This document shows positions 2,528 to 54,603 of a stretch of DNA of 64,000 bases, one piece after another. Source of the stretch: Minisyncoccota bacterium (GTDB lineage: Bacteria; Patescibacteriota; Minisyncoccia; Phycocordibacterales; XYD1-FULL-46-19); contig JBBDJY010000016.1 in assembly GCA_040879645.1 (NCBI GenBank), positions 11,064-75,063 of the forward strand. The letters run 5' to 3'. The notes below the pieces were generated by a model. It was not told the DNA's origin and made no database searches. It saw only the letters and a program-made list of their open reading frames with translations. Numbering within the stretch: the first letter of the stretch is position 1; every line of letters begins with the position of its first letter. The position numbers and the translations under genes were made by a program.

Positions 2528-2769
2528 AATTGATGATTCCAAAACCAAAACTGGCAAGGTGACACCTTGACAGTTTTGGTAGGGGGGATTTTTGTCCGGT
2601 TTCCACCGGCTTTTTTTGACCTTGACAAAACCATAAATATTTGCCAGTAATTGAATCAGACAACTTGGCCTTAGGCCCAGTTTTGACATAGGAATAAGCG
2701 AAACTTTTCGCGAAAATACACACACGGAACACGGACGAAAAAAGCCGATTTATCGGCAGGAGGTGAGTG

Positions 2770-4950: not shown

Positions 4951-4955
4951 AATTA

Positions 4956-5134
4956 GTCGAGGTTGAACCTCGACCAATGTTTGTACCCCCGAAGCCAACG
5001 GCTTCGGGGGTTTTCTTTTTTCAAATCGAGATGGGCCGGTCTTTAAAGCTTTAGTCGAGGTTGAACCTCAATACCGAGGTTTAACCTCGTTATTGAACCT
5101 CGTTATTGAGTGTTGGTCGAGGTTGAACCTCGAC
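4956..5134. repeat. REP cluster: GTCGAGGTTGAACCTCGAC and ATACCGAGGTTTAACCTCGGTAT palindromes (at least four copies)
   Basis: Perfect and near-perfect 19-23-bp palindromes read directly; same family at 6969-7093, 13257-13322, 13711-13809, 34630-34648 and 35337-35398. Confidence 0.85.
4985..5020 (+). terminator. Rho-independent terminator (cccccgaagccaacggcttcggggg followed by T-run)
   Basis: GC-rich hairpin plus T-tract directly after the PASTA gene stop. Confidence 0.6.
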
Positions 5135-5262
5135 TAATGCTACGGCTGATTTAATTCCTTGCATATTTTTTATATTCGTGGTAGTAATGGTTAAATTATC
5201 CTTGGACCGTAAACGGCCGGGAAAAGGGCGAAATTAGAAATTTATCAATAAGGAGAATAATT

Positions 5263-5913
5263 ATGAAGAAAATAAACAAAATAGCAGTCATTTTGACCTT
5301 GGCGATCTTGGTTTTGGTACCGGTTTTGGCTTTGGCGCAAACGGCGCTTAATGTCGCCATTACGGCACCGGCGGACGGAACGGAAGTTGTTGTCGGGCAG
5401 AGTGTAAACTTTACCGGTACGGCAACCGGTGGCGATTCTTCAAGTTACCAATTTAATTGGACTTGGGGTGATGGCACCGAAACCAGTTCAGGTAATAACA
5501 ATGGGGCAACCCAGACGACTCATACCTTTAGCACCATTGGGGCTAAAACAGTAGAATTGCGGGCCATTGACTTGAATACCAATTCGGGCACCAAGACGAT
5601 TACCGTCAATGTTGTTACCGGTGAGCCGGCCCTGGTTATTTCCAATGTGCGAGTTGAGGCGGCTGATATAACAGCCAATAGCGCGATTGTTCGTTGGACG
5701 ACTAATAAGCCGGCCACCAGTCGGGTTATTTACGACACGGTTTCTCGGGCCGGAGCCTTGAATATGAATTTGGCTCCAAATTATGGTTACGCTCATTTCA
5801 CCGGGACGGTAAATACCAGCCCAATGGTTACCGAGCATGCCGTTACCGTTTCCGGTTTGTCAGCTTCCACTCAGTACTTTTTCCGAGCGATTTCGGAAGT
5901 CCCGGCCAATTAA
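5263..5913 (+). CDS. Secreted protein with PKD-like (WTWGDGT) and fibronectin-III/PAP-N-like modules (hypothetical)
   Basis: RBS AAGGAGA; signal peptide; PKD signature NWTWGDG; beta-sandwich-like C-terminal segment. Confidence 0.6.
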   Translation: MKKINKIAVILTLAILVLVPVLALAQTALNVAITAPADGTEVVVGQSVNFTGTATGGDSSSYQFNWTWGDGTETSSGNNNGATQTTHTFSTIGAKTVELRAIDLNTNSGTKTITVNVVTGEPALVISNVRVEAADITANSAIVRWTTNKPATSRVIYDTVSRAGALNMNLAPNYGYAHFTGTVNTSPMVTEHAVTVSGLSASTQYFFRAISEVPAN

Positions 5914-5967
5914 TCATTTTTGATTAAGCACCGCCGGATTGGCTTTTCGTGATATACTCACGGAGAA

Positions 5968-6927
5968 ATGAATCCGGAAACACGACAAAAAATCAAAGAA
6001 TTATTTCCGTTAGTTAAGGAAGATGTTCCGCTGGCTCCCCTGACCACTTTTGGTCTCGGAGGTAAAGCGACTTTCTATCTGCGGGTCAAAACCGCCGGCC
6101 GATTGGCCGGTGTTTTGGCGCTTGTCCGAGCTTATCATCTACCGGCCACCATTATGGCCGGTGGCAGTAATATTGTTTTTGCCGATGAGCGGGTGGATAA
6201 ATTAATTATTCATTACCAAAGTTTTAATCATGCCCGGCCGACGATTTTAGGTCGGAAGATGCGCGTTGAAGCCGGTTTGGTTTTGGATAAAGTGGTTAAA
6301 ATTTCCGCCCGAGCCGGCATGGCCGGTCTCGAGTATTTGACTGACATTCCCGGCACGGTTGGCGGAGCAATTGTCGGCAATGCCGGTGCCTATGGTCAAG
6401 CCATCGCCGATCATTTGGTGAAAATTGAATATTTTGACGGTTTGATGGTCAAGACTATGCCGGCGGCGGAAGCCGAGTTTGCCTATCGGCACAGTATTTT
6501 TAAGACTAAAGATTGGGCGGTTTTGGCCGGCGTTTTTCGTTTGCCGGCCGGTGATCCCGCCGAATTGATGCGAGTGGTCGCGCGGATCAGGCGGTTTCGG
6601 CGCAAAAAGTACGAGCCGGGACTCAAATGCCCGGGCAGTTTTTTTAAGAATGTTTTGGTTGAAACGGTGTCGTCGGAGGTGCTTGGCCGTTTGGACCAGA
6701 GTAAAATCATTGATGGCAAAATTCCGGCCGGCTATTTATTGGAAGCGGTTGGGGCGCTTGGTCGGCGACGGGGCGATATTGCCATCGCGTCTTTTCATGG
6801 TAATCTGCTTTTTAATCTGGGTGAGGGGACTTGTCGGGATGTTTCCGGTTTGGCGGCCGAATTAAAACAAGCGGTTTGGGATAAATTCGGCATTACTTTG
6901 GAAGAAGAGATTCGTTACATTTTTTAA
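5968..6927 (+). CDS. murB: UDP-N-acetylenolpyruvoylglucosamine reductase
   Basis: FAD-binding N-terminal motifs (FGLGGKA..AGGSNIV) and MurB C-terminal domain; length 319 aa. Confidence 0.85.
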   Translation: MNPETRQKIKELFPLVKEDVPLAPLTTFGLGGKATFYLRVKTAGRLAGVLALVRAYHLPATIMAGGSNIVFADERVDKLIIHYQSFNHARPTILGRKMRVEAGLVLDKVVKISARAGMAGLEYLTDIPGTVGGAIVGNAGAYGQAIADHLVKIEYFDGLMVKTMPAAEAEFAYRHSIFKTKDWAVLAGVFRLPAGDPAELMRVVARIRRFRRKKYEPGLKCPGSFFKNVLVETVSSEVLGRLDQSKIIDGKIPAGYLLEAVGALGRRRGDIAIASFHGNLLFNLGEGTCRDVSGLAAELKQAVWDKFGITLEEEIRYIF

Positions 6928-6968: not shown

Positions 6969-7093
6969 ATACCGAGGTTTAACCTCGGTATTGACGTTAT
7001 ATTTAGCCACGATAACGAGGTTAAACCTCGGTATTGAGTATTAGTCGAGGTTGAACCTCGACCTAGTCATTAATCGAGGTTAAACCTCAATCA
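6969..7093. repeat. REP cluster (four palindromes of the GAGGTT-AACCTC family)
   Basis: Direct reading; intergenic between murB and gatB. Confidence 0.85.
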
Positions 7094-13256: not shown

Positions 13257-13322
13257 ATACCGAGGTTAAACCTCGGTATTATGGCTTAAAATAACGCTTA
13301 TAACGAGGTTAAACCTCGGTAT
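13257..13322. repeat. REP doublet (two ATACCGAGGTTAAACCTCGGTAT palindromes separated by tatggcttaaaataacgcttata)
   Basis: Nearly identical about 66-bp block repeated at 13711-13777. Confidence 0.85.
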
Positions 13323-13443
13323 TTAGATTGTTAATTGGTGGTTAATCCCCACCTAGTATTGTTGCCACTTGATTTTTTAGATAATCGTTTTATGCTAAAA
13401 ACAGAAGAACTTTATTCTATTGTTGGGCAATGGAGGACGAGTG

Positions 13444-13710: not shown

Positions 13711-13809
13711 ATACCGAGGTTAAACCTCGGTATTATGGCTTAAAACAACGCTTATACCGAGGTTAAACCTCGGTATTATCTTTTTTTTGGCCCGAGGTTT
13801 AACCTCGGG
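13711..13809. repeat. REP doublet plus a third variant palindrome (cccgaggtttaacctcggg)
   Basis: Direct reading. Confidence 0.85.
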
Positions 13810-17921: not shown

Positions 17922-17946
17922 TTATCAAACACCGGGTGTTTGATAA
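17922..17946. repeat. Left flanking palindrome TTATCAAACACCGGGTGTTTGATAA of the RAYT at 17925-18596
   Basis: Perfect palindrome; near-identical copy at 18626-18650. Confidence 0.8.
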
Positions 17947-18596
17947 TCTTCTTTAGCGCCACTGGTTTCAACCCATTTTTTATAACTTTGGCCGGGGTTT
18001 GGCCCGTCCATTTGGTCCATGATTATTTTGGGTTTAAGTAATTCGCCCCAACGATTTTCATTGGTGTAGTCGCTAAAACTTGACCAACGATATTCTGTTT
18101 CTCGATTATTATAGTCAATCTCCCTTGCGTTTAAGTGGACGTAGGCCGAAGCATAAAGTAATTGCTCATTGTCTTTAATGTGAACAGCGCGAAAAGGTCC
18201 TTGAAAAAGGTGTCCAGATTGTTGATATCTGGTATTGAAATACTTGGTATAACCGTTAAGAATCTTTTGCATGTAGGTGGAAACTCCGTTATCCACATTT
18301 GATTGGACAATCAAATGAAAATGGTTCGGCATCAAACAAAAGGCGATCAATGTCACTAGACGATTTTCGATGAGGGTTTCAATGTCTTGATGGTTAAAGC
18401 CGAAATTGTTTTCTTTTATAAATTTTTTTGCATGCGATCCGATATTATTGATACTGCGGGCTGATTGTAAATGAAGAATATACAATAAAAATCTGGCACG
18501 ATCTAAGTCATCTTTAAAGATATCGCATTTAAGGTTTCCTCGGTTAACTAAGTGAAAATATTCACCGGCGACAAAAGGAGTTTTTCGATAAGTCAT
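17925..18596 (-). CDS. REP-associated tyrosine transposase (RAYT; IS200/IS605 TnpA-like HUH Y1 transposase)
   Basis: HUH motif NHFHLIVQ, C-terminal RWSSFSDY tyrosine region, N-terminal YHLVNRG motif. Confidence 0.8.
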   Translation of the reverse strand: MTYRKTPFVAGEYFHLVNRGNLKCDIFKDDLDRARFLLYILHLQSARSINNIGSHAKKFIKENNFGFNHQDIETLIENRLVTLIAFCLMPNHFHLIVQSNVDNGVSTYMQKILNGYTKYFNTRYQQSGHLFQGPFRAVHIKDNEQLLYASAYVHLNAREIDYNNRETEYRWSSFSDYTNENRWGELLKPKIIMDQMDGPNPGQSYKKWVETSGAKEDYQTPGV

Positions 18597-24003: not shown

Positions 24004-24076
24004 GCCAGCATAGCTCAGTTGGTAGAGCAACGGTTTTGTAAACCGTAGGTCGTGGGTTCGAATCCCTCTGCTGGCT
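24004..24076 (+). tRNA. tRNA-Thr (anticodon TGT)
   Basis: Cloverleaf read by eye: acceptor GCCAGCA/TGCTGGC, D-arm GCTC..GAGC, anticodon stem ACGGT/ACCGT with loop TTTGTAA, T-arm GTGGGTTCGAATCCC; no encoded CCA. Confidence 0.8.
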
Positions 24077-24530
24077 CACAAACAAAGAGCCGAAAGCGGA
24101 TGCTTTCGGCGATTATTGTTTGTGCCAGTAGAGGGATGAGAACGGCGGAGCGCGCGAAGCCGACCGAGTGGTAACGAGGTCGAGCGCGAGCCGTGTCCCG
24201 CGGCACTTCATATTTTGTGAGTGGAATGAAACAAAATATGTTAGTGACCGTCAGGACGAATCCCCAGCTTCCTCACAAACAAAGAGCCGAAAGCGGATGC
24301 TTTCGGCGATTATTGTTTGTGCCAGTAGAGGGATGAGAACGGCGGAGCGCGCGAAGCCGACCGAGTGGTAACGAGGTCGAGCGCGAGCCGTGTCCCGCGG
24401 CACTTCATATTTTGTGAGTGGAATGAAACAAAATATGTTAGTGACCGTCAGGACGAATCCCCAGCTTCCTCACAAACAAAGAGCCCTCGGCGGATGCTTT
24501 CGGCGATTATTGTTTGCCCACGGACTGGAA
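24077..24530 (+). repeat. Tandem direct repeat: two complete 197-bp units plus a partial third immediately 3' of tRNA-Thr; each unit ends in a degenerate copy of the tRNA 3' end (pseudo-att)
   Basis: Units start at 24077, 24274 and 24471 (period 197); the ORFs at 24168..24371 and 24365..24568 are artefacts of this repeat. Confidence 0.85.
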
Positions 24531-25607
24531 AAAGTCAGAATCTGTTACTGGTCTCGATTCTATCATAAAATCATTCCATTTCATGCTAAAATGAGTAGAT
24601 GAAGAAAAATAATATTATCATCTATCAAGCTAAATCAGGTGCTCTTGAGTTCAAGAGTGATTTGAAAGAAGATACTATTTGGGCATCACAAATCCAAATA
24701 GCCGAGGCTTTTAAGGTAAATGTTCGTACAGTAAACGAACATATAATAAACATTTACAAAACAAAAGAACTATTTAAGAAAGGAACTATCCGGAAATTCC
24801 GGATAGTTCAAAAAGAAGGAAACAGAGAAATTTCTCGTGATATCCAGCACTATAACTTAGACATTATTTTGTCAGTTGGATATAGAGTTAACTCAAAAAA
24901 AGCAACTAAGTTTAGGCAATGGGCCACCAAAACCCTTAAAGACCATTTAGTTAAAGGATATACGATAAATCGAAAAAGAATCGATAAAAACTATCTTGAG
25001 TTTTTAAGATCAGTCGAAGAAGTTAAAAAACTTCTTCCCCAAGGGAATACCCTGTCAACAAAAGATACCTTGGAGCTAATCAAATTCTTTGCCGGCACTT
25101 GGCTTTCTCTGGAGGCCTACGATAAATCAACATTTTCTAAACAGGGCCTAACTAAAAAACAAGTCAAAATCACAGCCGATGAATTGGAGAACGCTATTGT
25201 CGATTTACGGCATAATCTAATCTCACAAAAAGAAACGACGGACATCTTTGCTCAAGAAAAATCAACCGGTTCCATTGCTGGCATTGTGGGGAATGTATTC
25301 CAAGGTTTTAATGGTAAAAACCTCTATCCAACCGTAGAAGAAAAGGCCGCCCATCTTTTATATTTTATAGTCAAAAACCACCCCTTTATTGATGGAAACA
25401 AGCGAAGTGGAGCTTTTGCTTTTGTTTGGTTTTTGAACAAAGCCGGTATTTTAAATAGAGATAGTTTTACTCCCGAAGCATTAACGGCTTTAACAATTTT
25501 AGTGGCTGAGAGTAATCCGAGTGATAAAGAAAAAGTTGTTGGTTTGATTTTGAATTTATTAAGGTGATTTAACTTTTTATTCAATCCCAAATGATTGCCC
25601 CATTCTG
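24521..25607 (+). mobile_element. tRNA-Thr-associated islet bounded by about 45-bp direct repeats (24471-24520 and 25608-25650, both with the ccctcggcggatgctttcggc variant), carrying only a RhuM-Fic/Doc gene
   Basis: Direct repeats read directly; AT-rich cargo; no integrase present. Confidence 0.55.
24599..25567 (+). CDS. RhuM-family virulence-like protein fused to a C-terminal Fic/Doc domain (HPFIDGNKRSG motif)
   Basis: N-terminal RhuM-like pattern (IIYQ..NLDIILSVGYRVNSKKATKFRQWAT); C-terminal Fic/Doc motif HxFx(D)GNKR. Confidence 0.7.
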   Translation: MKKNNIIIYQAKSGALEFKSDLKEDTIWASQIQIAEAFKVNVRTVNEHIINIYKTKELFKKGTIRKFRIVQKEGNREISRDIQHYNLDIILSVGYRVNSKKATKFRQWATKTLKDHLVKGYTINRKRIDKNYLEFLRSVEEVKKLLPQGNTLSTKDTLELIKFFAGTWLSLEAYDKSTFSKQGLTKKQVKITADELENAIVDLRHNLISQKETTDIFAQEKSTGSIAGIVGNVFQGFNGKNLYPTVEEKAAHLLYFIVKNHPFIDGNKRSGAFAFVWFLNKAGILNRDSFTPEALTALTILVAESNPSDKEKVVGLILNLLR

Positions 25608-29475: not shown

Positions 29476-29746
29476 ATGTTCTTTATTTTTTATTTCACTT
29501 AAATTTTGAAAAAATTTAATAAAATTAACAAAACTAAATAGTTGTTCCAACTATGCCTAATAGGAATATAATCGGAGTCTCGGGCTTGAAAGTAATAGCC
29601 GGTCAATGCCGGCAATTCTTTGATGATCTGTTTTAATCGGGAGTTTCAATCAATGGATAGCCAAATCAGGCCTAAAATCAGGCGTTTTTGACCGGGAAAA
29701 TCACTTCTCTTTTTTGGGTAAATATGCTAGAATAGAGGGTATAAAT

Positions 29747-32299
29747 ATGGCCAAGAAAGATAATTCAGAGGCAAAAAAAAGCCGTAAATATACGGCTGAT
29801 AATATTGTTGTTTTGGAAGGATTGGAACCGGTCCGCAAACGCCCGGGGATGTATATCGGCTCCACCGGTCCGGACGGACTGCATCACCTGTTGGTAGAGA
29901 TTTTTGATAATGCCCGAGACGAGGCGATGAACGGCTATGCCGACGAGATTGAGGTCGCCCTTCTGCCTGACGGGGCGGTGCGGGTAGTGGACAACGGTAA
30001 TGGGATTCCGGTAGAAATCCACAAAAAGACTAAAGTTTCCACCTTGGAAACGGTGATGACGGTATTGCATGCCGGCGGTAAATTTGGCGGTGACGGTTAC
30101 AAAATTTCCGGCGGTTTACACGGTGTCGGCGCCTCAGTCGTCAATGCTTTGTCGGAATACTTGGTGGCCGAAGTCCATCGCGACGGCGGTAAATTCAGTC
30201 AGGAGTACAAACAGGGAATTAAAAAAGCCAAAGTAAAAAAAGTCGCTTCGTCCAAACTTTCCGGCACGGTGATTACTTTCAAGCCCGACAAAACAATTTT
30301 TTCCGAAACCGAATATGATTGGCAACGGGTCGTCAGTCATTTGCGTGGTCAGGCTTATTTGGTCAAAGGTTTGCGGATCAGAGTAATCGATGCTCGGCTG
30401 GTGACCGAAAAAATCAATACCGACGATGTCTTTTTCTTGAGTGAATTGGGTTTGGAAGCACCGTCCCGGACTTTCTATTTTGAAGGCGGACTTTTGTCTT
30501 TTGTTAAATTTCAAAACCAAGACGAAAAACCGGTCCACAAAAATATTTTCTACGTGGAAAAAGAAGCGAGTGAGGTGACGGTCGAGATTGCCCTGCAGTA
30601 TATTGATGATATTTCTCCGCGAGAAATCAGCTATACCAATAATACGATCACCCCGGAAGGAGGGATGCACTTGACCGGTTTTCGTACCGCTTTGACCCGA
30701 ACCTTAAATGATTATGCGCGGAAGAATAATTTAATTAAAGACAAGGAAGAGAATTTTACCGGTGATGATGTCCGTGAGGGGATTGTCGTTGTTGTTTCGG
30801 TCAAGTTGCGCGATCCGCAATTTGAAGGCCAGACCAAAGCCAAATTGGGCAGTGTGGAAGCCCGCAGTGCCACCGATTCGGTTTTTGGTGAAGCCTTCTC
30901 GATGTTTTTAGAGGAACATCCGGAAGACGCCAAGCAAATTATCGGCAAAGTCACTTTGGCGCTTAAGGCCCGCAAGGCGGCCAAGGCGGCCAAGGATTCG
31001 GTTTTGCGCAAGGGGGCGTTGGAAGGCCTGACTTTGCCGGGAAAACTCGCTGACTGCCAAACCCGTGATGCCTCCGAATCGGAATTGTTTATCGTCGAAG
31101 GCGATTCGGCCGGTGGATGTTTTTTAGGTGATACGAAAGTAGCATTAACCGATGGCCGAGAAGTGTCTTTTAAGGAATTGGTAGAGGAAGATAAAGCCGG
31201 TAAACAAAATTATTGTTATACCATTTCTAATGATGGCCGAGTAGCGGTTGGTCAGATTAAGCATCCCCGTATTACCAAGAGAAATACCGAAGTTATTAAG
31301 GTTATTTTAGATAATGAAGCGGAAATTGAATGTACTCCTGATCATCGTTTTATGCTTCGTGACGGTAGTTTCCGTCAAGCCCGTGAGTTAAAACCCGATG
31401 ATTCTTTGATGCCTCTCTATCGAAAAGTTTCTGAAAAAGGCGGACGAATCACTATTGCCGGATATGAAATGGTTATGAGTCCCGGTCTTAACCACCGAGT
31501 CAAGGCCGTGATAGCTGAGAATAAATTTGCTGATGTTTACGATATCGAAGTGCCGGGGACTCATAATTTTGCTTTAGCCGGCGGAGTTTTTGTTCATAAT
31601 TCAAGTAAACAAGGTCGGGATCGGCGGACGCAGGCGATTTTGCCGTTGCGGGGGAAGATTTTAAATGTTGAACGGGCGCGCTTGGACAAGATGCTTGCCT
31701 CGAAAGAAATCAAATCGCTGGTTATCGCCATTGGGGCGGCGATTGGCGATACTTTTAATATTGCCAAATTACGCTATCACAAGATTATCATCGCCACTGA
31801 CGCTGATGTGGACGGCGCGCACATTCGAACATTACTCTTGACCCTCTTTTACCGCTATTATAAGCCCTTGATTGAAGGTGGTTTTATCTATGTTGCTCAA
31901 CCACCGCTTTATAAAATCAAGAAAGGCAAAACGGTGGAATACGCCTATACCGAAGAAGGTAAAAGTCAAATTATTAAAAAACTTGGTGCCAATCCGGCGA
32001 TTGAAATGGAGGTGGCCGATGAGAGTGATGGCGAAATTGAAATAACCGAAGATGAAGCGGAAGAAAAAGCCGCCAAATCATCGAAAATCGGTCTCCAGCG
32101 CTACAAGGGTCTGGGTGAAATGAATCCGGAAGAACTATGGGAGACAACGATGAATCCCGACAGTCGAGTCTTAAAACAAGTAACCATCAATGAAGCCGAA
32201 GAGGCCGACAAAACTTTTGATGTTTTAATGGGTAATGAGGTTGAACCGCGCCGGTTGTTTATTCAAACCCATGCCAAGTTGGCCAAGGTGGATGTTTAA
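29747..32299 (+). CDS. gyrB: DNA gyrase subunit B containing a 161-aa mini-intein
   Basis: GyrB ATPase and Toprim motifs; extein junction EGDSAGG|[intein]|SSKQGRDR; ORF from 29714, likely ATG 29747. Confidence 0.9.
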   Translation: MAKKDNSEAKKSRKYTADNIVVLEGLEPVRKRPGMYIGSTGPDGLHHLLVEIFDNARDEAMNGYADEIEVALLPDGAVRVVDNGNGIPVEIHKKTKVSTLETVMTVLHAGGKFGGDGYKISGGLHGVGASVVNALSEYLVAEVHRDGGKFSQEYKQGIKKAKVKKVASSKLSGTVITFKPDKTIFSETEYDWQRVVSHLRGQAYLVKGLRIRVIDARLVTEKINTDDVFFLSELGLEAPSRTFYFEGGLLSFVKFQNQDEKPVHKNIFYVEKEASEVTVEIALQYIDDISPREISYTNNTITPEGGMHLTGFRTALTRTLNDYARKNNLIKDKEENFTGDDVREGIVVVVSVKLRDPQFEGQTKAKLGSVEARSATDSVFGEAFSMFLEEHPEDAKQIIGKVTLALKARKAAKAAKDSVLRKGALEGLTLPGKLADCQTRDASESELFIVEGDSAGGCFLGDTKVALTDGREVSFKELVEEDKAGKQNYCYTISNDGRVAVGQIKHPRITKRNTEVIKVILDNEAEIECTPDHRFMLRDGSFRQARELKPDDSLMPLYRKVSEKGGRITIAGYEMVMSPGLNHRVKAVIAENKFADVYDIEVPGTHNFALAGGVFVHNSSKQGRDRRTQAILPLRGKILNVERARLDKMLASKEIKSLVIAIGAAIGDTFNIAKLRYHKIIIATDADVDGAHIRTLLLTLFYRYYKPLIEGGFIYVAQPPLYKIKKGKTVEYAYTEEGKSQIIKKLGANPAIEMEVADESDGEIEITEDEAEEKAAKSSKIGLQRYKGLGEMNPEELWETTMNPDSRVLKQVTINEAEEADKTFDVLMGNEVEPRRLFIQTHAKLAKVDV
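31118..31600 (+). other. Mini-intein inside gyrB (Cys1 ... His-Asn, with +1 Ser); no homing endonuclease domain
   Basis: Block A CFLGDTKVAL, block B TPDHRF, blocks F/G VYDIEVPGTHNFALAGGVFVHN|S; 483 nt in frame. Confidence 0.8.
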
Positions 32300-34583: not shown

Positions 34584-34629
34584 AGGCCAATAATAGCAAG
34601 ATTTTTTGCTTTAGCCAAAGGGTGTTCTT

Positions 34630-34648
34630 AGTCGAGGTTGAACCTCGA
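34630..34648. repeat. REP palindrome GTCGAGGTTGAACCTCGAC upstream of the RAYT
   Basis: Direct reading. Confidence 0.85.
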
Positions 34649-34676
34649 CTAAGAAGTTATTATAATTTAACATAAC

Positions 34677-35423
34677 ATGAGCCGAAATTTTTCTTTCTCT
34701 ATTGATGAGTTCTATCACCTGTATAATCGTGGTAACGATAAGAGGGATATTTTTCTTGATTATCTAGATAGGGAGAGATTTTTAAAATTACTCTATCTTT
34801 GTAATGGTAAAAATGAATTTCATATTCAAAAAATTCTTGACGAGGAACTTTTTTATTTTAATCGAGGTGAGTCTATCGTTGATATTGGAGCTTATTGTTT
34901 GATGGATAATCATTATCATTTATTGGTTAAAGAAAAGATGGAAAATGGCATCAGTCTTTTTATGCAACGATTATCAACGGCATATTCTATGTATTTTAAT
35001 AAAAAACACGATAGAACAGGCGCTTTGTTTGCCGGTCGTTTTAAGGCCAAACATCTTGATGACGATGACTATTTAAAGTATATTTTTGCTTATATTCATT
35101 TAAATCCGATTAAAATAGTTGATGATTTTAGTTGGAAATCCGGAATAGTAAATGATCTGGAAAAGATTAAAAAACATTTGAGCGATTATCGTTATTCGAG
35201 TTACCAAGATTATCTGGAGATCAATCGAGCAGAAACAAGAATCCTGAATAAAGAATCCTTTCCGGAATATTTTGATGATGTTGAAGATTTTAAAAATTAT
35301 CTAGATGATTGGATCAATTACCGAAGAGAAGAATTAGTCGAGGTTGAACCTCGACCAACAAAGGGTCATTCAATCAACAGTCGAGGTTCAACCTCGACTA
35401 GAGTTCTTTCGCTGATTCGATAA
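34677..35423 (+). CDS. REP-associated tyrosine transposase (RAYT), second copy; its 3' end runs into a REP doublet
   Basis: HUH motif NHYHLLVKE; YRYSSYQDY tyrosine region; N-terminal YHLYNRG. Confidence 0.8.
35337..35398. repeat. REP doublet (GTCGAGGTTGAACCTCGAC ... GTCGAGGTTCAACCTCGAC) overlapping the RAYT 3' end and containing the dnaE stop codon
   Basis: Direct reading. Confidence 0.85.
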
Positions 35424-48264: not shown

Positions 48265-48909
48265 ATGACCACTTTTCACCTCATCAGTATTTTCCCCAAG
48301 AGCTTCACTTCCTACATTGAATGCTCGATCATCGCTCGGGCGATTAAGGCAAAAAAGATTGCCGTCAAATTTTATGATCCGCGAGATTATACCGCCGACA
48401 AGCATCGTTCGGTTGACGACCGACCTTATGGCGGGGGGCCGGGAATGGTGATGTCGGCCGAGCCGATTATTTTGGCGGCTCGGGCGGCTCGTTGGCGCCG
48501 ACCAAAAGCCAAAGTTTATTTACTGGCAACGACCGGCAAACAATTTACCAATCAATTAGCCGGTCGCTTGGCTAAGAAAAATGAAGATATCATCATTATT
48601 TGCGGCCGGTATGAAGGCATTGATGCTCGAGTGAAGAAAATTTTGCGGGCCGAATATTTAACTATCGGTCCCTATGTGTTGACCGGCGGCGAATTGCCGG
48701 CTTTGGTGGTGATTGATGCTATCGCTCGACAAATTCCCGGTGTCTTGGGTAAAACCGAATCGCTTGAAGAGAGTCGGCCGGCCGGGCGAGAAGTTTATAC
48801 TCGACCGGAAGTGATGGTGATTGACGGTAAAAATTATCGCGTACCGAAAGTGTTATTATCCGGCGATCACAAAAAAATCACCGACTGGCGACAAAAGCGC
48901 CATCGGTAA
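48265..48909 (+). CDS. trmD: tRNA (guanine37-N1)-methyltransferase
   Basis: MTTFHLISIFPKSF..YGGGPGMVM motifs; ORF from 48139. Confidence 0.9.
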   Translation: MTTFHLISIFPKSFTSYIECSIIARAIKAKKIAVKFYDPRDYTADKHRSVDDRPYGGGPGMVMSAEPIILAARAARWRRPKAKVYLLATTGKQFTNQLAGRLAKKNEDIIIICGRYEGIDARVKKILRAEYLTIGPYVLTGGELPALVVIDAIARQIPGVLGKTESLEESRPAGREVYTRPEVMVIDGKNYRVPKVLLSGDHKKITDWRQKRHR

Positions 48910-48916
48910 AACCACA

Positions 48917-48964
48917 GGCTTTTTGTTTGTTCGATTAAGGCCGGAATTTTGTCAAGGTGTCACC
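48917..48964. promoter_or_regulatory. Conserved intergenic module copy 1 (GGCTTTTTGTTTGT..GGAATTTTGTCAAGGTGTCACC; half palindrome)
   Basis: About 80% identical to the modules at 52513-52560 and 54550-54603. Confidence 0.6.
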
Positions 48965-49107
48965 GCTGATAGCCAACGCGCCGATGCGTTTTGGCGCGCG
49001 GACGGAAGTCTTCGGCCTAATTCATGCCAGCAGGGATATTCACCGGCGCGATTTTCTAGATAATTATCTCTTGGCGCGAAATTTAAGTAATGGTATTATA
49101 AATAATA

Positions 49108-51726
49108 ATGAAAAAAATAAATCAGTCTTATCTCGTAGGGTTTGGTAAATCTAATTTTGCCTTCACCCTAATTGAGACGCTCTTGGTCATCTCCATCATT
49201 ACTCTCTTATCCAGTTTGATCTTGCCTAACCTGAACCTTGTCCGAAACAAAGCTCTGGTGACGGTGGCGAAAGAAAATCTCCGTCAATTGGAAAATTCTC
49301 TGGCGTTGTTTGAGTTTGATCACGGTTATTATCCCGGTCAGCCCGGCCGAACCGAGAGTAATCAAGATGTTGGTGGTTGGAGTCCTGCCCCAGGGGGACT
49401 CCAAGCCAGTCTGGTGCCCAAGTATATTTCTAAATTACCCGATAATCCGCAGATCACCTATTCTTATAAGCTCGAATCTTGCCCAGGTAATCAAAATCAA
49501 AATCAGGGTTGTAGCTTTAGTTTATCTGCTTATTTAGGTAGTGGAAACAATCATAGAAATAATGAAGAAATCGATGATAAGATAGGCGGGGTTGTTGTTT
49601 CCAACGAAGATCGACGGCCAGATCTCGGTAAATTTGATATCCCTTCAATCGAAGAAGAAGTTAAAGACGAAGTAATCAAGATCGCCAAGGAAAACGAAGA
49701 ATGTTTTGATGGATTAGATAACAATGAGGATGGCAAAATCGACTTTGATGATTTTGGTTGTTTTGGTCCCAATGGTCAAGAGACTGATGCGGATTATGGC
49801 TGGACAACCTTTATCCCTCATCCGACAACCAGAATTGTTTATGTTAGCTCAAGCGAGGGAAATGACTCTAATAACGGTTTAAGTCCGTCAAAGCCGGTGA
49901 AAACGATTTCGAAGGGTCTTTCGTTGATACGGAATAATCACCCCGACTGGTTGCTTTTACGACGGGGCGATACTTGGGGGAATGCCGATTTTATAGACAG
50001 AAATGGTCTGTCTGAAGAGCATATGATAGTCGTTAGTTCTTATGGTGAGAATACGGAACGACCTAAACTTGTTTTTAGTACTAATAAGGGGTTACGTCTT
50101 TGGGGAGTAAAAAATTTTGCTCTGGTTGGATTGGAGATCTATCCTCAAAAACGTGATCCGAATTCTCCCAAGTTCCTCTCGTCGACTAGTGTTAGCGGGG
50201 GGATATCTATTCTCTTTAAAAATGAGAACGTTTTACTGGAAGATAATCATCTCCGTTATGGTGGCTTAAACATTCAAGATTACGGGGGAGGTTGGGAGAA
50301 TGTCAAAGTCAGACGCAATGTAATCGCTTATTCTTATAGTACTGATAGCCATGCGCAAGGCATTTTTACCAAAGGTAAAGGGAAGTTGTTGATCGAAGAG
50401 AATGTCCTGCATCATAATGGTTGGAACGATGATTTTCGGTTTGAAGTTATTCCCGGCAACAGTGACCCGGCGGCTTGGGCGTCTATCACTGATGGTCATT
50501 TCCAGATTAATCTGGCGACATCCCGTATCACTACTAGCCCTTTTAAAATTTCGGGCGTCAATTTCACTGGCGATACCACGATGTTTGATGTTGCCCAAAC
50601 TATAGAAGACGCAATTAATGTTGCGGTGGGTAAACCTGGGGCAGTAACTTTTGATTGGACTGGCGCGGTCTTTGTTTTGAAAAGCGACACTTTTGTTTCT
50701 AGCGACAAATACTCTCTAGCGACTTTATCTGGCGGTGAAGGGACAAATATCTCTCTTGATACGTGGCTTAATCGGTCGTCTTTACGTAAGCCGGAATCTA
50801 CTATTTTCAATCGTAATATGTATTTAAGTTACGGCTATGGCAACACTACACTGCGGGGAAATATTGATTCCAAAGGCGCTTCTGGGGGCGTTCAATTGCG
50901 AATGGGTGGTCTGATCGAAGACAATTTGTTTTTACGTAATCCCATCTCTATTACTGTTGGTCACAAGCAAAATCCGGCTAAGTCAACCATCGGTGGAATG
51001 ATTAGAAGGAATGTTATTTTGGGGGCTAGAGATATTGATACTCAAGCTCAAGGCGGAGGTATTTCGGCTGAATCAACGAACACTAAATCTTATGGTCACA
51101 ATTATTTTGACGGTATTTATATTTACGATAATATTATTGCTCACAACGAATTAGGTACTGGTAATAGTAAGGCCATTAGTTTAGGAGCTGCTTCTGGTTC
51201 TAAAAACGCTCATATTTATAATAATGTTGTCTATAATTGGCGCAATAACACCGGTAGTGCCACTGACCATCGTGGTTCTGGTCTAGATTTATATGTGCCG
51301 AGTGATTTTACTGGAGGGTCTGTCTACAGTAATTGGATTATTCAGCCAAACAAAGGCTTTGTGATTTCTACTAGTGAGAGTAGTGCCCGTAAGTTTAACT
51401 TTTACGATAATGCCTATTTTAGTACCAGTGGGCATCCTGGAACCTGGAGCAGTACTTGGTTTCGGTTTGGTGGGTCGACAATTGTCCCTTTTACCGACTG
51501 GGTTAATATCACTGGCGACACTAGCACCAAACTTACAGCTGTTCCTAATTTCCGTGACCCCAAGCGAGATATTGATACTTATGCCGGCTCTTTGGGATTT
51601 GCGCCAACCTACGAGGCCTTTATGGAGGAGGCAATGAAACAGTCTCGCTTCAATTGGCGACCAGAATTGACCGCTTATGCGGTTAATGAATATATCAGGG
51701 AAGGTTTTGAAATTGTTAATCAATGA
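49108..51726 (+). CDS. Giant secreted protein: N-terminal prepilin-like hydrophobic segment (FTLIETLLVISIITLL) fused to an approximately 800-aa predicted right-handed beta-helix domain
   Basis: Type IV pilin-like N-terminal motif; repeated N/D/G-rich beta-helix-like segments (NNVVYNWRNN, DNIIAHNELG). Confidence 0.6.
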   Translation: MKKINQSYLVGFGKSNFAFTLIETLLVISIITLLSSLILPNLNLVRNKALVTVAKENLRQLENSLALFEFDHGYYPGQPGRTESNQDVGGWSPAPGGLQASLVPKYISKLPDNPQITYSYKLESCPGNQNQNQGCSFSLSAYLGSGNNHRNNEEIDDKIGGVVVSNEDRRPDLGKFDIPSIEEEVKDEVIKIAKENEECFDGLDNNEDGKIDFDDFGCFGPNGQETDADYGWTTFIPHPTTRIVYVSSSEGNDSNNGLSPSKPVKTISKGLSLIRNNHPDWLLLRRGDTWGNADFIDRNGLSEEHMIVVSSYGENTERPKLVFSTNKGLRLWGVKNFALVGLEIYPQKRDPNSPKFLSSTSVSGGISILFKNENVLLEDNHLRYGGLNIQDYGGGWENVKVRRNVIAYSYSTDSHAQGIFTKGKGKLLIEENVLHHNGWNDDFRFEVIPGNSDPAAWASITDGHFQINLATSRITTSPFKISGVNFTGDTTMFDVAQTIEDAINVAVGKPGAVTFDWTGAVFVLKSDTFVSSDKYSLATLSGGEGTNISLDTWLNRSSLRKPESTIFNRNMYLSYGYGNTTLRGNIDSKGASGGVQLRMGGLIEDNLFLRNPISITVGHKQNPAKSTIGGMIRRNVILGARDIDTQAQGGGISAESTNTKSYGHNYFDGIYIYDNIIAHNELGTGNSKAISLGAASGSKNAHIYNNVVYNWRNNTGSATDHRGSGLDLYVPSDFTGGSVYSNWIIQPNKGFVISTSESSARKFNFYDNAYFSTSGHPGTWSSTWFRFGGSTIVPFTDWVNITGDTSTKLTAVPNFRDPKRDIDTYAGSLGFAPTYEAFMEEAMKQSRFNWRPELTAYAVNEYIREGFEIVNQ

Positions 51727-51830
51727 CCACTAAATTAATTATCGGGAACTGGAAGATGAATCCGGCGACCCTGAAGGAGGCCAAGGCGATTCTGGCCAAC
51801 ATCAAGAAGGAGAAGAGAAATGAAAATGTT
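51723..51830 (+). pseudogene. tpiA: 5' remnant of a triose-phosphate isomerase gene (MTTKLIIGNWKMNPATLKEAKAILANIKKEK...), truncated after about 30 codons
   Basis: Highly characteristic TIM N-terminus IIGNWKMN; reading frame diverges into non-TIM sequence and stops; ATG overlaps the upstream stop (ATGA). Confidence 0.5.
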
Positions 51831-52455
51831 AGTGACCCTGGTCTTGGTGTCGATGTTCGTGTTCGGTGGTGCTTTTGCCGACTTCTTGGTCAATAGTCAG
51901 GGGGAAGTGAAGGAGAATGAAGGATGGCGTCCGTTGACCGAGTTCGAGCAGGAGGCGGTCAACAACCCCGGTACGGAAGTGCCGATCATCGACAGTCAGG
52001 TCAAACTCGACTATCGTCGCGATGGTTTCTGGCATCTGTTTCCCATCCGCGCTTACGAGCAGGTCGTGGTTTACGGTGGTGGCTAATTACAAACCAAAGA
52101 TCAAGCCGGAGAGGTGGTGGGGGAACGGCAGATTGCTTGTCATATCATCTTGGGCTTGATTGCTATCGGTCTGATGATGGTGGGTAATCTTTTGTATTTT
52201 AAGTATGGGGGAGACGAGAAAGCCTACGTCTTTACCGTGCCCGCCTTCCTTTTCGCCATCTTTGCTGCCGCCTTTGCCACTATCTTTATCGTTTTCAAGG
52301 CTGGAGATCTTGCTAATTTCCTTGCTATGGTTTTTGCCTTTGCTCTCGCCCTCGCCCTCTGCAATCTGACGGTCAATTTTAAAAACCGAATACTCTATTA
52401 TGGTCTTTCGGTGACCTTCTACGTCCTGATGGGAGTTGCCTTGTTTACTTGGTAG
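51820..52455 (+). pseudogene. Secreted-domain plus 4-TM membrane protein interrupted by a single in-frame TAA (52084-52086); paralog of the intact gene at 53869-54501
   Basis: ORFs 51820..52086 and 52114..52455 are in the same frame; alignment with the paralog continues across the stop (GGG*LQTKDQ vs AGRLQIRYQ). Confidence 0.7.
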
Positions 52456-52486: not shown

Positions 52487-52560
52487 CCCGTGATTTCCGC
52501 AAGGAAATCACGGGCTTTTTGTTTGTCCGGTTAAGGTTGGAATTTGTCAAGGTGTCACCA
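52487..52560. promoter_or_regulatory. Conserved intergenic module copy 2: terminator hairpin (cccgtgatttcc..ggaaatcacggg) + GGCTTTTTGTTTGT.. + half palindrome TTGTCAAGGTGTCACC
   Basis: Direct reading. Confidence 0.6.
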
Positions 52561-52642: not shown

Positions 52643-53359
52643 ATGGCTACTTCCAAGTCGTTGCGGGAAAAAAGAAAAAAGATGGGCTTGTCACAAACAG
52701 AGTTGGCCGGTCTTTTAGGGGTGTCTCGACCAACGCTCGCCAAAATAGAAAAAAACGAAAGACCGTTAAATAAAGTTGAGACAGAAAAACTCAAAGACAT
52801 TTTTGAGTCGTTTGAGCTTGATCATCAGACACAAGGCGACATAAGAATCAATATCCCGGCCGGAAATATCAATAAGTTTAAACAAGTTTTATTATATATT
52901 TTGGAAAAAGTCGGTGCCAAACCGAATGTGGGCATGACGGTAGTGTACAAACTTCTGTATTTTATTGACTTTAACTACTACGAGAAATATGAGACCCAGT
53001 TAATGGGGCTTACTTATTTTAAAAATACTCATGGACCGACACCGCGCGAATTCAAAAAAGTGGTTGACGAAATGAAAAAATCAGGTGAATTGGTGGAGGT
53101 GGGGTCAAAATCCTTTGCTTATGATCAGAAAAAATTTTTACCTCGGCTTAAGTCCGATTTATCAGTTATTTCCGGTCAAGAGCTTGAAGTTATTGATAAT
53201 GTCTTAGACAAATATGCCGATCGGACAGCTAAACAGTTATCTCTTATGACTCATCGTGATATGCCTTGGAAGGCCACCAAACATGGCGAGAACCTTGATT
53301 ATGAACTGGCTTTTTATCGGCCGGATGAATTCTCTGTTCGGGAATATGAAGAATTGTAA
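52643..53359 (+). CDS. HTH (XRE-family) plus Panacea/DUF4065-like antitoxin (PanA/SocA-like)
   Basis: N-terminal HTH LSQTELAGLLGVSRPTLAKIEKN; C-terminal KLLYFIDFNYY..G.TYFKNTHGP Panacea-like pattern. Confidence 0.65.
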   Translation: MATSKSLREKRKKMGLSQTELAGLLGVSRPTLAKIEKNERPLNKVETEKLKDIFESFELDHQTQGDIRINIPAGNINKFKQVLLYILEKVGAKPNVGMTVVYKLLYFIDFNYYEKYETQLMGLTYFKNTHGPTPREFKKVVDEMKKSGELVEVGSKSFAYDQKKFLPRLKSDLSVISGQELEVIDNVLDKYADRTAKQLSLMTHRDMPWKATKHGENLDYELAFYRPDEFSVREYEEL

Positions 53360-53362
53360 TTA

Positions 53363-53713
53363 ATGGCCGATATGATTATTACTGAAAGTGAGGAGTTTTG
53401 CCGAGATTTCAAAAAACTCCTTAAAAAATACCGAACTCTCAAGGGTGATTTTGAGGTGGCTAAGAAAGCTATTAGTGCCGAGCCGACCGGTGATGGTAGT
53501 AAACATTGGCATATCATCAAACAGAAAGACGAGGCCTATATTTTGAAAATTCGAATGATGTGTCGAGCGGTTAAGGGGGCGTCTTTCCGCCTGGTGTACT
53601 TTTATGATGGCAAGACGGTCGAAGTTATATTTATTGAAATATTTTTTAAGGGCCGGAAAAGTCTACCTAATCAAAAGAGGATTAAGCGGATGGTTAAAAA
53701 ACTAATGGGTTGA
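53363..53713 (+). CDS. Putative toxin partner (116 aa; RelE/ParE-like fold suspected)
   Basis: 4-nt gap after the antitoxin; C-terminal pattern FRLVYFYDGKTVEVIFIEIFFKGRK resembles the RelE/ParE core. Confidence 0.5.
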   Translation: MADMIITESEEFCRDFKKLLKKYRTLKGDFEVAKKAISAEPTGDGSKHWHIIKQKDEAYILKIRMMCRAVKGASFRLVYFYDGKTVEVIFIEIFFKGRKSLPNQKRIKRMVKKLMG

Positions 53714-53868: not shown

Positions 53869-54501
53869 ATGAAAAAGTTAGTGATTTTTGCCCTGACTTT
53901 GATGTTCGCCTGTGGCGAAGCCCAGGCCACCGAATTCTCGATCAATGATCAAGGAGAAGTGAGGCAAGAGGAAGAAGGGTGGCGTCCGTTGACCGAGCTG
54001 GAGCAGGAAGCGGTCAACAACCCCGGTACGGAAGTGCCAATGACTGCTGTGGGGATGATTGAGTATCGTCGAGACAGTCTCTGGTATTTTTCTTCGATTG
54101 TAAACTACCAACAAGTCTTGATCTATGAGGCCGGCCGGTTGCAGATTAGGTATCAGACCGGAACGGTCGAGACCAGGCATTTCGGGAGGCATTTGGTGTT
54201 GGCTTTGGTCGCCATCTTTATGGTGATGGCAGGAAACGTGTGGAGAATAAAAAAGGAAGAAGATTTTCACATCTTCCCCATCCTCGGCGCTATCTTCGTC
54301 ACCTTCTCTACCTTTCTTCTCGCCTCAATTGACGCTGGCACACCGAGCGGTCTTCTCTGCCTTTTCGCCTTCGCCGCAATCGTCGTTTCTTTTTTTAGCG
54401 TCGTTCTCGCTGGAGATGAGAAAACGAACAGAGCCTTTTACTGGTCGGCTTCGGGGGTTTTCTACTTCATGCTGGTAATGGTCATTTTTGCCGTCTGGTA
54501 A
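53869..54501 (+). CDS. Secreted-domain plus 4-TM membrane protein (intact paralog of 51820-52455)
   Basis: Signal peptide; shared 23-aa stretch EGWRPLTExEQEAVNNPGTEVP with an about 70-nt near-identical patch; C-terminal TM bundle ending in W. Confidence 0.65.
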   Translation: MKKLVIFALTLMFACGEAQATEFSINDQGEVRQEEEGWRPLTELEQEAVNNPGTEVPMTAVGMIEYRRDSLWYFSSIVNYQQVLIYEAGRLQIRYQTGTVETRHFGRHLVLALVAIFMVMAGNVWRIKKEEDFHIFPILGAIFVTFSTFLLASIDAGTPSGLLCLFAFAAIVVSFFSVVLAGDEKTNRAFYWSASGVFYFMLVMVIFAVW

Positions 54502-54523: not shown

Positions 54524-54603
54524 CCCCGTGATTTCCTTTTGGAAACCACGGGCTTTTTGTTTGTCTGTTTGAGCCGGAATTTGTCAAGGTGACACCTTGA
54601 CAA
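54524..54603. promoter_or_regulatory. Conserved intergenic module copy 3: terminator hairpin + GGCTTTTTGTTTGT.. + full palindrome TTGTCAAGGTGACACCTTGACAA (54581-54603)
   Basis: Direct reading. Confidence 0.6.

Follow-up and report, generated by a model that had tools for sequence, protein, structure and literature searches.

Modular pilins, as defined by Raynaud et al. 2021, consist of a pilin module, a linker and a functional module that is unspecific to pilus biology, and >1,200 such proteins in 264 architectures have been described, many of them from the Candidate Phyla Radiation (CPR), with a location at the filament tip being argued (PMC8179133). Incorporation into filaments has been documented or argued for those with a large cargo, including PilB (50 kDa), CofB and ComZ, and Dataset S1 of the same study holds the architectures IPR012902-IPR039448 (3 proteins) and IPR012902-IPR005543-IPR039448-IPR007742 (2 proteins) (PMC8179133). 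Among Patescibacteria, pilB, pilT, pilM and pilC are conserved across 56 lineages, and in Nanosynbacter lyticus TM7x (Saccharibacteria) deletion of PilX2, a minor pilin with a C-terminal β-propeller, lowers host binding (Grossman et al. 2025, PMC12206443). Here we analysed a 64-kb stretch of contig JBBDJY010000016.1 from a Minisyncoccota bacterium (hereafter the window), which at positions 49108-51726 of the forward strand encodes an 872-amino acid (aa) protein with a pilin-like N-terminus and a β-helix body. An initial annotation of this DNA had implied that such a design is unusual, but modular pilins that include pilin plus β-helix had already been catalogued (PMC8179133), and the protein is a rare, unannotated and unusually large instance of that design. 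With a probability of roughly 0.6, we take it to be a modular minor pilin whose β-helix, placed at the tip of a type IV filament, binds and perhaps cleaves polysaccharide on the host surface.

Like PilB (vWA) and PilC (lectin) of Streptococcus sanguinis, the protein combines a class III signal, a pilin module, a linker and a bulky module, although at 94 kDa in its mature form it is much larger than PilB at 50 kDa, and it also differs from modular pilins in having an acidic double-disulfide linker, an inserted domain, and Ala rather than Gly at position -1. PilX2, likewise a minor pilin from the CPR, also combines a non-canonical signal peptide with a large β-rich C-terminal module, and by analogy it is the best functional precedent for a possible role of the 872-aa protein. 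However, PilX2 carries a propeller and not a β-helix, and it is encoded with a defined type IV pilus system (T4P-2), whereas the gene described here is an orphan. A bulky effector at the tip of a type IV filament is a concept also common to PilY1/PilC, ComZ, CofB and GspK, but PilY1 is a β-propeller protein and not a pilin, and the domains inserted in or appended to ComZ, CofB and GspK are unrelated to the one seen here. Membership of the PilY1/PilC tip adhesins was considered and rejected, with no propeller (IPR008707) predicted and an N-terminus that is a pilin. In the literature we found no experimental study of any pilin plus β-helix protein. The gene and its parts, as mapped by homology and by AlphaFold2 (AF2) modelling, are as follows.

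49108-51726, + strand: complete gene, encoding an 872-aa modular prepilin of 96 kDa (94 kDa after the predicted cleavage).
49071-49099, + strand: promoter-like site TTGGCG-17-TATTAT with TG, 9 nt 5' of the ATG, a weak match to the consensus only.
49108-49161, + strand: leader peptide, aa 1-18, MKKINQSYLVGFGKSNFA, with cleavage predicted after Ala18 from the motif and the leaders of relatives.
49162-49602, + strand: pilin module, aa 19-165, with F19, E23, the α1 helix (aa 21-72), a small β-sheet and Cys125-Cys135, from homology and AF2.
49603-49791, + strand: acidic linker, aa 166-228, isoelectric point 4.05, including the double-disulfide repeat CFDGLDNNEDGKIDFDDFGC at aa 199-218.
49792-50427, + strand: N-terminal cap and first rungs of the β-helix, aa 229-440, from AF2, Foldseek and the family profile.
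50428-50796, + strand: inserted α/β domain, aa 441-563, from AF2 and the family alignment.
50797-51552, + strand: remaining β-helix rungs, aa 564-815, with an Asn ladder (N585, N606, N635, N675, N706, N742, N768).
51553-51726, + strand: helical C-terminal cap, aa 816-872, and stop codon, with the conserved pattern DPxR..Y...G....F..A..QS..W......VN.YIR.GF.

The N-terminus reads MKKINQSYLVGFGKSNFA followed by FTLIETLLVISIITLLSSLILP (...KSNFA/FTLIE, the slash marking the predicted cleavage point), which places Ala at -1, Phe at +1 and Glu at +5. This is the arrangement of a class III signal (a small residue at -1, Phe or Met at +1 and Glu at +5), and it is the sole motif of this type in a six-frame translation of the window. 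Using phmmer with aa 1-190 as the query we searched 1.84 billion representative proteins exhaustively, and obtained 12,000 matches at E<=1e-3, with a best non-self value of E=1.8e-19. The best 150 of these were mostly proteins of 150-200 aa whose own N-termini align to the query from aa ~14 to aa ~120/150, and similarity to pilins thus continues beyond the signal, with alignments reaching aa 115-150. Sequence matches in the PDB were to geopilin (8.5e-6), GspG (3.9e-4, aa 19-122) and PilA, the NCBIfam GspG model TIGR01710 gave E=6e-10 over aa 19-122, and a PHROG annotated as 'pilin' matched at E=8e-5. When aa 1-210 alone served as the query, a word-index search for homologues gave no match and failed to recover even the protein itself. 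AF2 modelling of the pilin module from a 127-sequence multiple alignment gave a 52-residue α1 helix and a small antiparallel sheet (strands 116-122, 137-143 and 158-164), with a predicted local distance difference test score (pLDDT) of 85-97 over aa 20-140, and the Cys125-Cys135 pair of the head is also present in the closest relatives. Judged by sequence, the N-terminus is a genuine type IV pilin module with a small GspG-like head and not a chance hydrophobic match, which bears out the prepilin-like N-terminus proposed in the initial annotation.

That annotation had also pointed out the lack of a canonical Gly at -1. The residue is indeed Ala, and we do not count this against a prepilin because, among the 145 closest motif-bearing relatives, -1 is occupied by Gly in 120, Ala in 23 (16%) and Ser in 2; leaders in the closest relatives are 4-69 residues long (median 10). 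An ordinary Sec signal peptide or signal-anchor that resembles pilins by coincidence is highly improbable. The missing Gly, the sub-threshold scores of curated pilin models, and the N-termini of the other checked members of the cargo family, all of which are Sec-like, lipoprotein-like or transmembrane, would fit such a view, but thousands of pilins are significantly similar through aa ~120-150, Phe +1 and Glu +5 are both present, the predicted α1 helix is long (~50 residues), and the module's closest relatives score above the N_methyl threshold. Since pilin homology extends ~130 residues past the hydrophobic segment, an ordinary Sec signal is not the explanation that we adopt.

Relatives of the pilin module point to a carrier that is specialised for cargo. 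Every one of the six closest long pilin modules bears extra domains, and five of the six are fusions of N_methyl with Beta_helix/NosD (P0121, which also has a PASTA domain, P0123, P0124, P0125 and P0128), while in P0122 a pilin is joined to a region of PD40-like repeats, recognised by a weak Pfam match below threshold. A source could be traced for three: a Candidatus Vogelbacteria protein belongs to the P0121 cluster, and NCBI lists both P0122 and P0123 as proteins of 'Candidatus ...' metagenome-assembled genomes (MAGs). We conclude that the carrier is a member of a pilin subfamily that bears cargo and is common in Parcubacteria. The catalogued β-helix modular architectures are shared by P0121 and P0123-P0125, closest pilin modules to the one described here. 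We take IPR039448 to be the right-handed β-helix domain and IPR005543 to be PASTA, so that IPR012902-IPR005543-IPR039448-IPR007742 would be the architecture of P0121. In contrast with these catalogued proteins, the cargo here is of another β-helix family, and no homology between it and the cargo of P0121-P0128 could be detected. When we compared the cargo by phmmer with the 149 best relatives of the pilin module, nothing homologous emerged, and the other pilin-β-helix proteins of Parcubacteria therefore carry helices of different families. P0122 and P0123 (MEX0918783.1 and MEX0918782.1) have consecutive accessions on one 37.7-kb contig, with near-identical pilin modules and different cargo, a pattern that suggests an exchange of cargo on a carrier that is itself conserved.

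Between pilin and cargo lies the acidic linker, in which the repeat CFDGLDNNEDGKIDFDDFGC is of an acidic double-disulfide or EF-hand-like type that resembles a calcium site (Cys199-Cys218; NF033662 is sub-threshold). Homology to non-pilin relatives begins only at aa ~189-195, and we therefore place the fusion junction at aa ~165-190. The four Cys residues of the whole protein are paired inside domains (125/135 and 199/218), which argues for an extracytoplasmic location.

The full-length AF2 model has a mean pLDDT of 80.7 and a predicted template modelling score (pTM) of 0.78, with pLDDT >90 over the greater part of aa 230-872 but low in the linker, and in it aa 229-872 form a right-handed β-helix of 71 kDa built from regular short strands. 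The stacked rungs and Asn ladder expected of a right-handed parallel β-helix are seen in the AF2 model, in the Foldseek matches and in the invariant Asn series. The initial annotation had predicted ~800 aa of β-helix immediately after the N-terminal segment. The confident helix that structure prediction yields upholds the fold, but the helix region is shorter, at ~640 aa including a 120-aa insert, and a 147-aa pilin head and the 63-aa acidic linker come before it; in the body, which the annotation described as rich in N, D, G and T, N+D+G+T+S make up 42%. In place of an ordinary Sec signal and a body without β-helix, the two findings that would have told against that annotation, we observed pilin homology beyond the signal and a confidently modelled helix.

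Foldseek searches of the cargo against the PDB returned only β-helix carbohydrate-active proteins and tailspikes, among others glycoside hydrolase families GH136 and GH110, polysaccharide lyase family PL6, a K1 capsule lyase and the P22 tailspike. The best structural matches were GH136 lacto-N-biosidases (LnbX, TnX, ErLnb136; E down to 2e-8) and GH110 α-galactosidases, with Foldseek values over the two of 2e-8 to 1e-6. GH136 also gave the best sequence matches to the cargo family profile (E=3.4e-16 to 2e-7), sharing the cap motif YVSSS-G-D-N-G...GD and the right-handed β-helix. However, TM-scores to GH136 and GH110 are 0.24-0.41 at ~10% identity, and the GH136 sequence match, including that at E=3.4e-16, covers a ~100-residue N-terminal cap only. 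We assign the protein to neither family, GH136 membership being rejected given that only this cap aligns at the sequence level, and no LnbY-type chaperone, as known for GH136, was found. In P22 gp9, the Klebsiella K1 lyase and KP32gp38 a β-helix stands, as proposed here, at the end of an appendage, where it recognises and cuts polysaccharide of the host surface, and their structural and profile matches to the cargo are weak; unlike these tailspikes, the protein here has no N-terminal virion-attachment domain, and its carrier is a pilin and not a phage tail. PF13229 was not detected on the query at E<=1, while homologues do carry it.

Within aa 229-440 the residues conserved in the cargo family are D253, R275, D288, E378-D379, R402-R403, E430 and N437-G-W-N440. 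Y572 and R598 are also conserved, and successive rungs carry conserved charged and polar residues. The inserted domain at aa 441-563 is present in only ~10% of family members; it has a weak match to DUF3383 (E=6e-5, below cutoff) and none in a search of PHROGs. These features bear on whether the cargo is a pure adhesin or lectin without catalysis, its β-helix being a rigid binding scaffold as in adhesins of the pertactin/FHA type, which is the version put forward in the initial annotation. We consider this possible, though somewhat unlikely: the family residue Asp435, 86% conserved, is replaced here (by His) and varies in the closest homologues and the insert-bearing subfamily, the 120-aa domain is inserted exactly at this site, and no glycoside hydrolase or lyase model is significant on the query itself, but E378, D379, E430, R402, R403, Y572 and R598 are all kept, and the significant structural neighbours are all tailspikes or enzymes that cleave glycans, with no autotransporter-type adhesin among them. 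A pure adhesin would moreover be a sub-case of the modular minor pilin that we propose, differing in binding as opposed to cleavage and not in architecture. Given a fold and closest solved relatives that are those of enzymes cleaving glycans, the cargo may as well be an enzyme or lectin-like as an adhesin.

The cargo family, which had not earlier been linked to pilins, was found at 78 loci in GTDB genomes. Its CPR hosts are Saccharibacteria, Kaiserbacteria, Vogelbacteria and Peribacteria, further hosts are DPANN archaea, Planctomycetota, Polyangia, Omnitrophica and Bdellovibrionota, and the family also occurs on 42 IMG/VR viral contigs. The bacterial pilin motif is present in none of 119 protein homologues and at none of the 78 GTDB loci, and the cargo therefore exists as a unit that is independent of the pilin, as the domain map and the definition of modular pilins would have it. 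On one viral contig (IMG/VR UViG_3300033066_001651; 760-2757 and 4935-6578) a cargo homologue lies ~2 kb downstream of a collagen-like tail-fibre gene in the same orientation, and some members of the family may be phage tail proteins. A Pacearchaeota homologue (L010; JAIFVX010000001.1, 5323-7695) is 790 aa long and 46% identical over query aa 189-440. It starts MKKGLSDVITAVLMILLALVAVVL and matches the archaellin/archaeal type IV pilin model TIGR02537 at 22.0 bits against a cutoff of 20, and in this protein the same cargo has independently been joined to a filament signal of the archaeal domain.

From the architecture and homologies that we observe, we infer processing by PilD, incorporation into a filament, a location at the tip and a glycan target. 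As in established type IV pilin biology, the prepilin peptidase would cut after Ala18 and methylate Phe19, and the α1 helix would pack into the type IV filament core. With a cargo ~5 times as large as its pilin head, the subunit would be restricted to the filament tip or to a short membrane-proximal stub. By analogy, the groove of the β-helix at the tip would bind, and possibly cleave, polysaccharide on the surface of the partner cell, and the pilus would thereby gain a host-recognising or host-wall-penetrating tip. As to origin, a cargo-carrying pilin module of Parcubacteria may have recombined within the linker with a β-helix protein of the kind that in other lineages is exported by Sec, lipoprotein or transmembrane N-termini.

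Several results weigh against this proposal. The pilin module falls below threshold on the query for PF07963 (N_methyl; 15.2 vs 21.2 bits) and TIGR02532 (13.3 vs 16.3 bits), and likewise for GspG (39.2 vs 88.9 bits), which accounts for the "hypothetical" label of the protein; these cut-offs are annotation thresholds rather than a biological definition. A Foldseek search with the pilin-module model found no significant match in the PDB, the best pilin being Clostridioides difficile PilW at E~1, and fold-level confirmation of the module consequently comes from its predicted topology. For the cargo, TM-scores to solved structures are low (0.2-0.5) at ~10% identity, similarity to GH136 is limited to the N-terminal cap, and the replacement of Asp435, next to the inserted domain, argues against a catalytic site simply kept from an ancestor. 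The combination of this cargo family with a bacterial pilin is a singleton. Finally, the 64-kb window encodes neither a prepilin peptidase nor an assembly ATPase, a platform protein, or a major or other pilin.

The lack of neighbouring pilus genes also bears on whether the protein is a surface enzyme or binding protein that is anchored by its class III signal and never enters a long pilus, the N-terminus being cut by the prepilin peptidase but serving just as a membrane tether or in a short pseudopilus-like stub. Arrangements of this kind can be likened to the sugar-binding proteins of the Sulfolobus bindosome and to the pseudopilins of the type II secretion system (T2SS). We regard this, the main alternative, as unlikely, while giving it real weight. 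The best curated match is the T2SS pseudopilin GspG and not a type IVa major pilin; the gene is an orphan far from pilus operons, as is that of its relative P0121, in whose genomic context we found no pilus genes and where a MacAB-type pump adjoins; the archaeal fusion has a faint match to bindosome BasC (E=0.036); and a 94-kDa cargo is hard to fit into a filament. However, modular pilins with large cargo are documented or argued as filament components (PMC8179133), similarity of the GspG type is generic among short pilins, and the head domain and disulfide loop are kept and conserved, which would be needless in a mere anchor.

Turning to the gene itself, window positions 49108-51726 hold a single intact ORF that starts at the ATG at 49108, and apart from this ATG there is no in-frame ATG, GTG or TTG upstream of the pilin motif, the frame opening two codons before. 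Its product is identical to the NCBI MAG entry WDZ85_03885 (Candidatus Paceibacterota, "hypothetical protein"), and no other protein >45% identical to it was found among 5.8 billion clusters. The gene lies between trmD and rpoB inside an accessory block. We judged it very unlikely that the fusion is an assembly chimera or a recent, non-functional gene. The fusion is a singleton without an orthologue above 45% identity, and it stands in a rearranged block with a 5' fragment of tpiA and a split paralogue directly downstream, but the identical gene with identical flanks is also present on an independently assembled Logan contig, the ORF is intact over 872 codons, the junction falls within the linker, GC content and GC skew agree with the surroundings, and the same pilin subfamily bears other β-helices in related genomes.

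The accessory block shows further signs of rearrangement. The tpiA fragment (51723-51815, MTTKLIIGNWKMNPATLKEAKAIL...) matches Pfam TIM positions 1-32 at E=9e-4, begins within the stop codon of the pilin gene and continues out of frame into the next ORF, and it is probably a remnant of the rearrangement behind the block. Downstream, the ORFs at 51820-52086 (88 aa) and 52114-52455 (113 aa) together match end to end an intact 210-aa membrane protein with a signal peptide that lies 2 kb further downstream, at 53869-54501, one segment being 91% identical in DNA; neither version has a family match, and the two loci represent a gene duplication with one of the copies split. An intergenic module, which the initial annotation had counted as two copies, was found three times (48909-48949, 52505-52545 and 54543-54583). 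It consists of the 3' arm of a strong terminator hairpin, a T-run and the conserved box GGAATTTGTCAAGGTGTCACC, and its copies flank two accessory cassettes between trmD and rpoB, with the copy after trmD lacking the 5' arm of the hairpin. The block also contains a gene with helix-turn-helix (Xre) and SocA/Panacea antitoxin domains (52643-53359), followed by an ORF of 116 aa with no family match (53363-53713), which together are probably a toxin-antitoxin pair.

Elsewhere in the window, palindromic intergenic repeats ATACCGAGGTTAAACCTCGGTAT and TTAGTCGAGGTTGAACCTCGAC occur at 5071-5137, 6969-7083, 13257-13323, 13711-13777, 34628-34670 and 35334-35376, and there are two genes for IS200-like Y1 transposases (17925-18596 on the - strand and 34677-35423 on the + strand). 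Together these look like a system of repetitive extragenic palindromes and their associated tyrosine transposases (REP/RAYT) in a CPR genome. A 197-nt unit is repeated three times in tandem at 24065-24516, with 93-98% identity and a hairpin in each unit, and a RhuM/Fic-domain gene (24599-25567) lies downstream. The gyrB gene (29714-32299) contains an intein (Intein_splicing, aa 477-629). Two ORFs each encode 727 aa: that at 301-2484 has internal repeats of ~75 nt and no family match, and that at 2767-4950 has four PASTA domains, with no kinase or transpeptidase domain detected.

Mechanisms of host recognition and attachment in CPR/Patescibacteria are largely obscure and type IV pili are leading candidates, with one genetically tractable case in which a cargo-bearing minor pilin aids host binding (PMC12206443). 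For the uncultivated Paceibacterota, the 872-aa protein offers a concrete candidate host-contact factor of unusually large size, with a cargo that hints at a glycan rather than a protein target. A bolder and doubtful extension is that episymbiotic ultrasmall prokaryotes of both domains independently joined the same glycanase-like β-helix to their own type IV filament subunits (a bacterial pilin in Paceibacterota, an archaeal pilin or archaellin-type signal in Pacearchaeota), giving an enzyme-tipped pilus that drills into or docks on host polysaccharide. On this view the pilus would be a cellular analogue of the phage tailspike, and relatives of the helix are indeed present on viral contigs. 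If the helix is catalytically active, the protein would be the first pilus-displayed polysaccharide-degrading enzyme, and the parallel archaeal fusion would suggest a strategy that is common to ultrasmall episymbionts.

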